Positions 12,089-18,748 of a stretch of DNA of 64,000 nt are shown piece by piece. The notes under the pieces were generated by a model. That model ran no database searches, had not been told where the DNA came from, and saw only the letters and a list, made by a program, of their open reading frames with translations. The number at the start of each line of letters is the position of its first letter. Positions within the stretch are counted from its first letter, which is position 1. Source of the DNA: Geothrix sp. (GTDB taxonomy: Bacteria; Acidobacteriota; Holophagae; Holophagales; Holophagaceae); NCBI RefSeq assembly GCF_020622065.1, contig NZ_JAHRYQ010000002.1, positions 234,232 to 298,231 of the forward strand, given 5' to 3'. The translations under genes were made by a program, and so were the position numbers.

Positions 12089-15000
12089 TTATAGAATAAT
12101 TCCACCAAACATCCAAGTCTGTAGGGCAATACCGAAATGTCCCACAAAACCCATACTGGGATTAGTGCGCGGACGATTTGGAACACCTCCTCTGAATGGT
12201 AGATCTCCCATACTTCCACCTCTGCCAGGTCGCAATTGGAAGTGGAAGTGTGGACCACTCGACGATGAAGACGGATGAAGTTTCTCATCCAGGCCAAACT
12301 GGGCACCTGCCCTCGCCCCATCAGCCATTGCCTTTTTCGGATCTTTTGCATTGTATCTTATATCCACCGCAAGTCCCTCATAGTGTGGACTCCTGGTGGA
12401 ATGGACCCCATTGGTAGTCGCTGTGACTGTCACACCTTTCGGGAAGTTATCACCTGATTGCTTCACAAACTCCCTAATGAATCCATCCAGGTTATCCGGT
12501 AGAGGGGTTGGAACTTTGCCGGTTGTCTTGAAATCCCCATCCAACGCCTGCCTCCACCTAGGGGTGAAAGAGATATCCCTATCGGAGCCATGAGTGTCAG
12601 GTATGGGTCCGAGGTCGCCATTATTTGTTTGTGCCGTATGGGTTTCAGGTTTTCTCGCTTCCTGCCCCTCCGCGGCATTACTCGCCCCTTCGCTCCCGGC
12701 ACCATTCGTCCCCCGAGTCTCGCTATCGGTTGAAATTGCATCCGCCAGGTATCCCATGATTCCGGACCCGCCGCCAATGGCGGTGCCGCCCGACACGCCA
12801 AAGATGTCCCAGTCCATGGGGTTTGACTGCATGGACATCAGCTGGTCTTGTGCTGCCTTCAAATCTGACCCGAATGCGGCCCGTCCATCCGGGTCTGTCT
12901 TCGTCACGGGATTGTTCGTCACATAGTTGTAGAGGTTCCAGGATTCGGGATCATCTTTGGTCTGGTCGTAGACGGGGTCCACTTGGGCGAATTTCCCGTA
13001 GACGGGAAGGTATTCCCTAGCCTGCATGTAGATCGCCTCACTGTCAGGATCCTCCTCGTGGTTGGTGAAGCGACGAAGGGCCGTTTTCCCCCAGCCGACC
13101 ATCCGCTCGCCGAAAGGAAGATTCTTGGATCGGCCCACGATCGCCCCCAAGGCATCGGTCATCACCGAGGGGCTCCCCACCTGGTCCGACTGGATGAACA
13201 TCGTTCCCACGCCGGGTGAATCCTCCGATAGTTCCTGCCCGAAACCATAGACGATGGTTCGCCTCCAGACCAGGGCTCCGGGAGCTCGCGCCATGACCGT
13301 TACGGTGGCGGTCACGGCTCCAACCAGATTCCTGGCGGTCAGCGTGTAGGTGGTCGTCGCCGCGGGCGACTGCTCGAAGCTGTTCCCCGTCACGGGCACA
13401 CCGTTGATCTCAAGGCCATCGGCTTGGCTCACGGACCACCCCAGGGTGGTGAGCCCTCCCGGCAAGACTTCCTGCGGGTCCGCGTAGAAGTCCTCGATCA
13501 TGGGCAATCCGGCCTCCACCACCACGGTGACCGAGGTACTGACCGAGCCCACGCCATTGGCGGCCCTCAGGACATAGGTCGTTGTCGCTGCGGGAGACAC
13601 CACCAGGCTGTTCCCCGCAACCGGCCCGATCCCCTCAAGGGTGAGCGAGGTGGCGTTTGTGACGCTCCAAGTCAGGGTCGTACTCTGTCCCAAAGCGATG
13701 GTGCTGGCCGTCGCTGAAAACTCGGTGATGCTTGGGGGCGCTGGCGCATTGACCGCCACGGTCACCTGCGCGGTGACGCTCCCTGCAGCATTCGTGGCCG
13801 TCAGCGTGTAGGTCGTGGTCACCTTCGGGAACACCTTGAGATGCCCCTTCCCTGCCACCGCGCCCACACCCTGGTCGATGGAAAGGCGGGTGGCTCCGCT
13901 CGATTTCCAACTCAGGGATGCGCCTTCTCCCGGAAGGATGCTGGCCGGACTGGCGGCGAGGCGGGTGATAGAGGGCTGAGCCAGCACCCTGACCACGACA
14001 GAATCGGCGGAAGCCCGATATCCAGCGGCTCGCGCCCTGAATATCACGGTGTAGCTGCCAGCCTGGGTGAAGGCATGGCTTGTCCTCGTGCCAACCGCTC
14101 GGCTGTGATCGCCGAAGTCCCAACTGCAGGCAGTGCCGAAGGTCGTCTCTCCCGTGAAGGCCACGCTGCTTCCGGGCGCCACGGTGATGGTCGTGGAAGG
14201 TTGCAGGATGGTGGCGCCGGCCGCTGGGTGACGGGTGCGCCCCAAAGTCGTTGTCGATAGGTATTTGGGAGGGCTAATCGGTGCGGGCACGGAAAATTGA
14301 GCCAAGGGCTCCCGGCCGAAACCATAGACCGTGTAATCGATGCTCCCGTCGGCGCGCATGCGCTTGAAGCGAAGGCCTGATGCCTCTAGCAGATAGGAGG
14401 TTCCATTCTCCTTCACCACCCGCCCCGAAGGATCGTAGAGCCAGGAGGCCAGCGCATTGGCGGTACCCGGATAGGCAAACACCTGGCTTAGGCGCCCCAG
14501 CACATCGTACTGACGCCCCGTATCGTAGGTGCCCATGGTCGTGGCCATCGCGGGACTCCCCTGGCTCAGGGCCACGAGGGCACCCGGGAGATCGTTGCCA
14601 ACCATGGAATCGGCCCGCCAGGCGCGAAGCTCCGAAGGCTGGAGGCTGCCCGGTTCACCCTCCGCATAGACGAAATTGGACTGGATTCGGTTCCCGAATG
14701 GATCGTAACCGAACCACTGGTCGACCCGTTCTCCATGGATCCCTACCACGCGACTGGCGCTGAGCCGTTGGAGTTCGTCATAGCTGAAGACATCATCCCC
14801 GCGGCTGAGCATCAGCCCCCCCGCCGACCATGTGATGGCGTTCGTTTCGACCACGCCACCGGGAGCCGCATGCTGCGTCAGAGCCAGCTCATCCTTGTCC
14901 AAGGTCGAGAGCGTGGTGGCGCCGTTGCCGAGGATCAAGGTGTTCGTCACCGCGGTACCTGCAATCTGGTCGTAGATCATCACCCCCCGGAGATTGCCAT

Positions 15001-18748: not shown

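Follow-up and report, generated by a model that had tools for sequence, protein, structure and literature searches.

An intact RHS polymorphic toxin, probably of the Sec-only class, with a family-specific N-terminal domain and a probable peptidase-type toxin

We have analyzed a 64-kb stretch of genomic DNA, referred to here as the window, and in particular a large minus-strand open reading frame (ORF) at 12089..18748. This ORF runs uninterrupted for 2219 codons from a GTG start and encodes a genuine, intact RHS polymorphic toxin, probably of the Sec-only class. It is likely that the protein is a stand-alone Sec-exported toxin belonging to a small, unannotated family, and that the mechanism proposed below describes it as a whole. 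Several features of the gene and its relatives appear to be undescribed: an N-terminal domain of ~700 amino acids (aa), a fixed site of hypervariable insertion and of gene splitting, a probable hedgehog/DD-peptidase toxin together with an exported immunity protein, and a possible (S/A)QT junction.

The elements by which the original prediction had recognized an RHS toxin, namely YD repeats, an RHS-associated core, a shell-start-like motif and a core that ends in DPDGR, were all recovered. The YD/RHS repeats match Pfam RHS_repeat (PF05593) in four stretches, with an E-value of 1.2e-16 over the whole protein, and NCBIfam YD_repeat_2x / TIGR01643 at 31.4 bits, which is above the cutoff. About 14 YD-type motifs can be counted from aa 774 to ~1450, so the "dozens" first reported are too many. 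The YD-repeat shell (aa 766-1485; 14294..16453, minus strand), delimited by Pfam, TIGR01643, YD motifs and structural comparison, ends in the strand YTVYGFGREPL. A last shell strand and the core occupy aa 1826-1956 (12881..13273, minus strand), from DPVY to PVTKTDPDG-R. The core matches NCBIfam TIGR03696 (Rhs_assc_core) at aa 1878-1955 with 57.5 bits against a cutoff of 32.5; the Pfam match to the core is weak. Its C-terminal end, PVTKTDPDGR (aa 1947-1956), fits the autoproteolysis motif PxxxxDPxG, and DPDGR is presumed, by analogy with the family (PMC13018210), to be the site of autoproteolysis. The shell-start-like motif GSVDAVSGSLNLRVPLGPRLPGRIPIGF is found at aa 78-105 (18434-18517). An AlphaFold2 (AF2) model of aa 59-1258, built on a multiple sequence alignment of 7 sequences, is confident over the YD part only, where the predicted local distance difference test score (pLDDT) is 70-80. 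Searched with Foldseek, the YD-shell model matched the shells of type VI secretion system (T6SS) Rhs proteins, TcB-TcC, teneurins and teneurin-like proteins (TLPs) at E-values of ~1e-22 to 1e-17 (best 5e-22). Towards its N-terminal end the AF2 model is unreliable (pLDDT 22-70), and these matches therefore reconfirm the YD shell only.

Every complete relative that was inspected begins with a canonical Sec leader, and to this extent the proposed Sec export stands, although the leader of the window protein is itself atypical; its Sec type is suggested by homology. Read from the ATG at codon 46 (MVVLACLQAFAGA, MVVLACLQAFAGAEG), as was first done, the leader would consist of only 13 residues before the mature EGDPxHETP and would lack a charged n-region. 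This reading is the less likely one. L014 is a near-identical copy on a metagenome contig; its first 127 aligned residues agree with the window protein at 98% of aa positions. Here the ATG is an ATT, while the GTG, a GGAG upstream of it and the open frame are all kept; in the window the GGAG lies 5 nt upstream of GTG 18748. Translation thus most likely starts at GTG 18748, which gives a probable export leader of 58 aa (aa 1-58; 18575..18748, minus strand) that has an Arg-rich n-region of poor conservation, the hydrophobic region (h-region) GLGVGWMVVLACLQAFAGA and A-G-A before EGDP. The n-region is 39 aa long from the GTG and absent from the ATG. The hydrophobic core of 19 aa has a mean Kyte-Doolittle value of 2.0-2.3 and peaks at aa 39-49. 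The A-G-A cleavage region aligns with the canonical leaders of four relatives (P0001, P0002, P0006 and P0007), and the two homologues from the indexed search have ordinary Sec leaders of 22-25 aa with cleavage sites aligned to the junction of A-G-A and EGDP. When the window is compared with L014, divergence is far more rapid in the first 45 codons than in the mature part. Two other signals were considered and rejected: a Tat signal (TRRGWGRLRR), because the RR is ~17 aa from the h-region, L014 has VRRQLGRLCQ and the homologues have no RR; and a lipoprotein (signal peptidase II) reading of VVLAC, because the Cys lacks conservation and the h-region continues beyond it. Upstream of the gene are three direct CTTAACA repeats (18800-18842, minus strand), kept in L014, which may be a promoter or a regulator-binding site.

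Leader and YD shell are separated by a family-specific, beta-rich N-terminal domain (aa 59-765; 16454..18574, minus strand) with the shell-start-like motif near its start. When a profile of this domain was run exhaustively with HMMER over 1.84 billion representatives, it matched 98 representative clusters, and for 54 the E-value was below 1e-30. In almost every case the match is N-terminal in an RHS protein, mostly of 2000-2400 aa (full-length members have 1960-2375 aa). A word-indexed protein search, even when a profile query was included, retrieved 2-6 relatives only. The relatives that could be traced come from a Holophagaceae metagenome-assembled genome (MAG), a Solibacteraceae MAG (P0007, 57% identity) and one Bacteroidetes MAG. 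All 20 of the 20 relatives that were read share one plan: a Sec leader, the motif GSVDAVSGxLxLxIPLGPRLPGRIPxGF, ~650-700 family-specific residues, the YD shell, an insert, the core and an individually different C-terminus. To judge from its sequence, the motif looks like the usual RHS shell-start motif. Members of the family are often disrupted: the closest homologue (L001 4412-5641, 58% identity) is broken by an ISL3-family transposase, and the L007 homologue is frameshifted near the insertion site.

The original prediction had seen in the N-terminal ~770 aa a hydrophobic leader and no PAAR-like pattern. The absence of a PAAR pattern is upheld, but the region is far from featureless, since ~700 aa of it form a conserved family domain. 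This domain has no Pfam, NCBIfam or PDB sequence match (profiles against PDB, E<=10). In hhalign, its profile and that of the family's YD region give a probability of <1%, so that no significant repeat relationship between them is seen. The AF2 model of the domain is mostly beta, with some long hairpins. It may belong to the shell itself, form a plug or a propeller, or serve in export or anchoring. A more specific proposal is that the ~700 aa are a diverged FN-plug and NHL propeller (possibly with TIP) that seal the shell, which would make the protein a bacterial TLP. TLPs are present in Acidobacteriota, are Sec-targeted in Gram-negatives, have polymorphic C-termini and immunity genes and no known delivery machine (PMC13018210); moreover, the shell and pre-shell regions minus the insert come to ~1530 aa, near the size of the teneurin superfold, and Foldseek lists the TLP structure 9ifo among the RHS matches at an E-value of 5e-19. 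This match is no better than those to the T6SS Rhs cores, however, and the Pfam families NHL, FN-plug, TTR and TEN_YD-shell are all absent at E<=1. The N-terminal profiles match no PDB sequence at E<=10, though the PDB holds both 9ifo and teneurins; the shell-start-like motif, at aa 78, comes before the N-terminal region instead of after it; and the model has long hairpins, not short propeller blades. We regard this identity as unlikely; of the three defining TLP elements the YD shell is present, and NHL and FN-plug go undetected in a region where the AF2 model is unreliable.

The shell and the core are interrupted by an insert (13274..14293, minus strand), identified by Pfam and a repeat listing, which is made up of a linker, a PKD domain (~13976-14215; Pfam PKD/PKD_4 at aa 1521-1586) and three immunoglobulin (Ig)-like repeats of ~77-80 aa each (13274-13975); the DNA repeats D1 and D5 were also detected. 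Neither this insert, nor what the toxin is, nor the immunity gene had been remarked on in the first reading, which is to this extent incomplete. The insert is bounded by the strand YTVYGFGREPL (aa 1472-1485) and by a second copy of it, TIVYGFGQEL (aa 1826-1840). The site is empty in one relative (L002) and in others is occupied by 3-7 Ig-like repeats or by repeats resembling carbohydrate-binding modules (CBMs). The simplest reading of such an array, variable in content but fixed in its exterior position, is that it would bind the target. The VYGFG(R/Q)E copies also form a 20-nt direct repeat in the DNA (13233-13252 and 14310-14329, 90% identical), which may be a footprint of the origin of the insertion and split site.

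In some relatives the gene is split at this same position. Part A of these variants (P0031, P0102 and P0042; ~1330-1350 aa), which consists of leader, N-terminal domain and shell, ends exactly at the insert-site strand. In L005 8028-18366 (GCA_002319925.1) a part B of 1917 aa overlaps the stop codon of part A and carries its own signal peptide, ~20 Ig-like repeats, the post-insert strand, the core and an AHH nuclease; it is followed by a leaderless immunity candidate of 178 aa. The split is present in three independent assemblies and is thus not an assembly artefact. Because both halves have a leader of their own, the split variants provide strong evidence, at the level of sequence, that the cocoon of this family is assembled in the periplasm after Sec export.

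Downstream of the core, a low-complexity linker rich in Gly, Ser and Ala (about 85 aa, aa 1957-2040; 12626..12880, minus strand), ending in TAQT, leads to the toxin cassette (aa 2041-2219; 12092..12625, minus strand), which from its motif and fold matches is a probable LAS-type (hedgehog/DD-peptidase-like) zinc peptidase. Three homologues of the toxin are present in the indexed database, two as free-standing cassettes and one as an RHS C-terminus, and H2116, H2122, D2129, H2167 and H2169 are invariant across the alignment. The toxin motif is H-x5-H-x6-D ... H-x-H, in which the H-x5-H-x6-D spacing is identical to that of Sonic hedgehog (HSEESLHYEGRAVDI) and the second part, GPHFHF, fits the H-x-H of M23 peptidases (GPHxHF). 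Its sole PDB sequence matches are the N-domains of Sonic and Indian hedgehog (HSxxSxHYEGxAVDI) and an M23 peptidase, at E-values of ~0.02-0.2. With the core of the AF2 model (pLDDT 70-90) the top Foldseek matches are desert and sonic hedgehog, MepA and the Streptomyces Zn DD-peptidase; these are non-significant (probability 0.51-0.91, E 0.07-0.18). LAS metallopeptidases (M15/M23/M74/hedgehog) are marked by the zinc ligands H, D and H and a catalytic His, arranged as H-x(3-6)-D ... H-x-H on the LAS sandwich fold, and the motif part of this signature is present in the toxin. The domain, 178 aa in length, has no Pfam match, M15 and M23 included. All of these lines agree and none is significant alone; taken together, we think that a LAS zinc-peptidase fold is probable. 

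The immunity gene (11550..12074, minus strand; 174 aa), recognized from its sequence and its pairing with the toxin among homologues, starts at ATG 12074 with AGGGAG 9 nt upstream. Its product begins with a hydrophobic export leader and contains one FG-GAP-type Ca-loop motif, GDFNGDGKKDFAV. The matches to the FG-GAP and XAC2610 families are weak and below cutoffs, and the latter is a lead only. Homologues of the immunity gene are located directly 3' of toxin homologues in L003 (59% over 174 aa) and L004 (50%), both with hydrophobic leaders, and the toxin-immunity pairing is therefore seen in three loci, including the window. Since the immunity protein has an export leader, the site of toxin action should lie outside the cytoplasm, which fits a peptidoglycan peptidase; peptidoglycan is probably what it attacks.

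The C-termini of the 33 family members differ from one another. A Pfam match at the reporting level (E<=0.05) was obtained for 9 of 30: Peptidase_M91 twice, DUF4329/Tox-JAB-2, a weak alpha/beta-hydrolase, AHH, and four sub-threshold, unrelated families (DUF4124, DNA_Packaging_2, K-cyclin_vir_C and ABC_transp_aux). Curated Pfam cutoffs were reached only by the two Peptidase_M91 and the AHH matches. The idea that the family is limited to envelope-acting toxins was rejected, as L005 carries the AHH nuclease with its leaderless immunity protein. For some members, then, a step of import into target cells must exist.

The original prediction had also held that neither the protein nor the 64 kb around it encodes a known delivery system. 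On both counts the scans bear it out. Within the whole protein there is no PAAR, DUF4150, two-partner secretion (TPS), SpvB/TcdB, LXG or VCBS domain (Pfam E<=1, NCBIfam E<=0.1), no prePAAR motif AARxxDxxxH in a regex search, no haemagglutinin family and no cell-wall-anchoring or wall-binding domain. Genes of the window were picked by codon-position GC across the 64 kb, giving ~55 ORFs that were scanned with Pfam. No T6SS, TpsB or Tc family was found among them, nor any POTRA/ShlB gene or TcA-like gene. What they do contain are housekeeping and unrelated families, among them acnB, ribH, nusB, accB/C, murJ, acyl-CoA ligase, dtd, a DUF4953 zincin, YceI, DinB, fatty-acid genes, a Ser/Thr kinase, trigger factor, ClpP, RecQ and a multihaem cytochrome. 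Apart from the immunity gene, no gene is common to the window and the loci L001, L002, L005, L007, L008 and L011, and with no conserved neighbour in these six loci there is no evidence for a dedicated partner.

Two rival explanations would nevertheless place the missing machine elsewhere in the genome. According to the first, the protein is a T6SS cargo effector whose N-terminal "clade" domain would dock onto a VgrG from another locus, in the manner of Tse15. Structurally the shell is indeed matched best by T6SS Rhs cores, the gene search spans the window while the rest of the genome is unseen, and Rhs effectors without PAAR reportedly exist that load through N-terminal clade domains. T6SS substrates, however, load from the cytoplasm and lack Sec leaders, whereas signal peptides are found in every complete member of this family that was inspected, including both halves of the split variants. 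Furthermore, vgrG, hcp and tss genes are absent from the window and from five related loci, and the immunity protein is itself exported. This explanation is very improbable. The second, which we hold to be extremely improbable, is a Tc-like BC cocoon that depends on a TcA-type translocator encoded elsewhere and is directed against eukaryotes. It could account for the size of the cocoon, for a two-gene split reminiscent of TcB/TcC and for the Foldseek matches to TcdB2-TccC3. Against it, SpvB, TcdB_toxin_midN and TcdB_toxin_midC are all absent from the protein (Pfam E<=1), the split falls at the boundary of shell and core and not in mid-shell, and an exported bacterial immunity protein is present.

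As a Sec-exported, stand-alone toxin, the protein would function as follows. The pre-protein would pass through Sec across the inner membrane and fold in the periplasm into a cocoon of ~205 kDa. The aspartyl protease of the core would cut after DPDGR, leaving the 28-kDa C-terminus enclosed. The Ig/PKD array would jut from the shell and bind a surface ligand on target cells, and the toxin, once freed, would act as a LAS-family zinc peptidase that cuts the peptide links of peptidoglycan, the producer being shielded by its periplasmic immunity protein. For crossing the outer membrane of the producer, the type II secretion system (T2SS), vesicles and lysis are candidate routes. Several points weigh against this scheme. 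The N-terminal ~700 aa have no assigned function and are poorly modelled (pLDDT 22-70), and the leader is unusual whichever start is used: the GTG gives 58 aa, the ATG 13 aa and no n-region. A search confined to the window also says little about T6SS or T2SS genes elsewhere. The LAS assignment is built on motifs and sub-threshold matches (sequence E ~0.02-0.2, Foldseek E >=0.07, mean pLDDT 61). The window does encode YceI and MurJ, as had been pointed out for a diderm, but the host is only probably a diderm acidobacterium, as judged by the taxa of the relatives. Finally, the member with an AHH nuclease implies a cargo that acts in the cytoplasm, and its import is a step outside the proposed model. 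A more far-reaching possibility, which we put forward tentatively and consider doubtful, is that the family constitutes a self-contained Sec-dependent RHS platform in diderm Acidobacteriota, separate from T6SS Rhs proteins, Tc toxins and TLPs, in which the N-terminal domain provides outer-membrane export, anchoring or target entry, the hypervariable Ig/PKD/CBM array where shell and core meet is receptor-binding, assembly from two polypeptides takes place in the periplasm, and the cargo includes LAS and AHH toxins.

The protein can be compared with several known systems. WapA of Bacillus subtilis has a Sec leader, an RHS shell and a polymorphic C-terminus with immunity, has no dedicated machine, carries cell-wall-binding repeats and belongs to a monoderm. 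The likeness to WapA suggested at the outset is apt as regards this logic of leader, RHS shell and C-terminus with immunity, but it does not extend to the anchoring: no wall-binding domain was found in the window protein, and its relatives come from diderm phyla, with an outer membrane to cross. With the T6SS Rhs effectors (RhsA, Tse5, Tse15, RhsP and S. bongori Rhs) the window protein shares shell fold, core and autoproteolysis motif; these effectors have PAAR, prePAAR or clade domains and no Sec leader, and the window protein is probably the reverse. The motif spacing of the toxin is that of Sonic hedgehog, and LAS peptidases (the hedgehog N-domain, the S. albus Zn DD-peptidase 1lbu, MepA 1u10 and M15/M23) are its top fold matches, although these matches are non-significant; the domain differs from them in being joined to an RHS core and in having as its partner an exported protein with an FG-GAP motif.

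The closest precedents are two published surveys. In Table 1 of Zhang 2012 (PMC3482391), "T2SS/Sec-dependent" polymorphic toxins are listed with a signal peptide as sole marker, with RHS repeats and as occurring "in all bacteria"; that paper also mentions adhesion domains that may sit within the repeat array or close to the toxin module. A signal peptide (in the window protein a probable one) as only trafficking signal, the RHS stalk, the core motif, adhesion domains close to the toxin and the variable toxin with its immunity gene are common to that class and to the window protein. The ~700-aa N-terminal domain, the fixed insertion site before the core and the split with two leaders are not described in the sections of that catalogue considered here, and neither is a hedgehog/DD-peptidase-type toxin, although the word "hedgehog" occurs there 3 times (PMC3482391). 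Raoelijaona 2026 (PMC13018210) reported bacterial TLPs in six phyla, including Acidobacteriota, and described Sec-targeted YD-shell toxins in Gram-negatives that have polymorphic C-termini and immunity genes and whose delivery "remains to be elucidated". The BiTLP of that work (9ifo) resembles the window protein, as we read it, in its Sec-targeted YD shell around a cleaved polymorphic C-terminus, immunity genes and Ig-like domains; TLPs are rare as a family but are found in Acidobacteriota (PMC13018210). It differs in its FN-plug and NHL, undetected here, in the position of its Ig-like domains, which are N-terminal in BiTLP and before the core here, and in the size of its C-terminus (~15 kDa, against 28 kDa here).

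Given these two precedents, the puzzle of a Sec-exported RHS toxin with no visible delivery route, which the original prediction had singled out, is real but already recognized, and the class is not new, having been catalogued in PMC13018210 and, as far as its Table 1 goes, in PMC3482391. How Sec-exported toxins with RHS/YD shells leave a diderm cell and enter their targets is a gap acknowledged in PMC13018210. For this question the locus is a compact comparative handle on export: the Sec leaders of its family are uniform, and a swappable display array sits at a fixed site. The two-gene variants indicate that the shell and the plug-plus-toxin part can be exported separately, and the toxin of the window probably needs access to the periplasm only. 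The known repertoire gains a probable cell-wall toxin of the hedgehog/DD-peptidase type and a new family of exported immunity proteins. None of this overturns current understanding, and the locus is a useful lead more than a surprise.

The toxin and immunity genes, together with a decayed insertion sequence (IS) of the IS1595 family, form an acquired island of low GC. The GC content drops from 0.65-0.69 to 0.42-0.53 between ~10200 and 12600, and the break at ~12600-12660 is located at the TAQT motif and not at DPDGR; the GC content is ~0.60 in the linker and 0.48-0.53 in the toxin. An (S/A)QT motif is found 50-91 aa past the core in ~19 of 33 family C-termini, compared with ~3 expected from its rate in the protein body. 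In the window it is at 12614-12625 (aa 2041-2044), and the free toxin cassette P0003 begins at (S/A)QT. The motif may be a recombination junction for the exchange of cassettes, or a second processing site. A homologue of the toxin-immunity pair (L004 1-11365) is on a contig with MobA/MobL, Rep_1, primase and integrase genes, an arrangement suggestive of cassette spread by a mobilisable element. The far edge of the island is marked by the remnant of the IS1595-family transposase (9040..10100, plus strand), revealed by three-frame translation and by tblastn to annotated IS1595 transposases; it is frameshifted, with the zinc-ribbon and the C-terminal conserved regions in different frames.

Such decay raises the question of whether the RHS gene is itself a decaying or non-exported copy, in which a degenerate leader, an IS remnant and an inversion breakpoint on the promoter side have put an end to its function as a secreted toxin. 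The leader indeed has no normal short n-region and its upstream 45 codons are fast-diverging between the two strains, the IS1595 element in the island has decayed, and relatives are often disrupted (ISL3 in L001, the frameshift in L007). In addition, L014 1-1260 joins the 3' end of a TPR gene (window 38132-38762, 95%) to the region upstream of the RHS gene (window 18850-18233, 91%), which implies a 19.9-kb inversion (window 18851-38766) with one breakpoint ~100 nt upstream of the RHS start. The 6.66-kb frame is nevertheless intact, with all catalytic and core motifs present. The mature N-terminus is 98% conserved in L014, h-region and cleavage site are kept, and the immunity gene is intact and has a good ribosome-binding site. 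That the gene is merely a relic is therefore quite unlikely, and we retain the reading of a functional Sec-exported toxin.

Two further observations concern the surrounding genes. Convergent with the immunity gene, and likewise part of the low-GC island, is a gene (10161-11399, plus strand) for a 412-aa protein with a nucleotidyltransferase domain (Pfam PF12281, NTP_transf_8); neither PADLOC nor NCBIfam gives a match to this protein, and PADLOC was negative for the island genes as a whole. A tRNA-Thr(TGT) gene at 7239-7314 overlaps the start at 7254 of the murJ ORF as mechanically called. The Pfam match of this ORF begins at aa 71, and in view of the overlap the true start of murJ must be further downstream.

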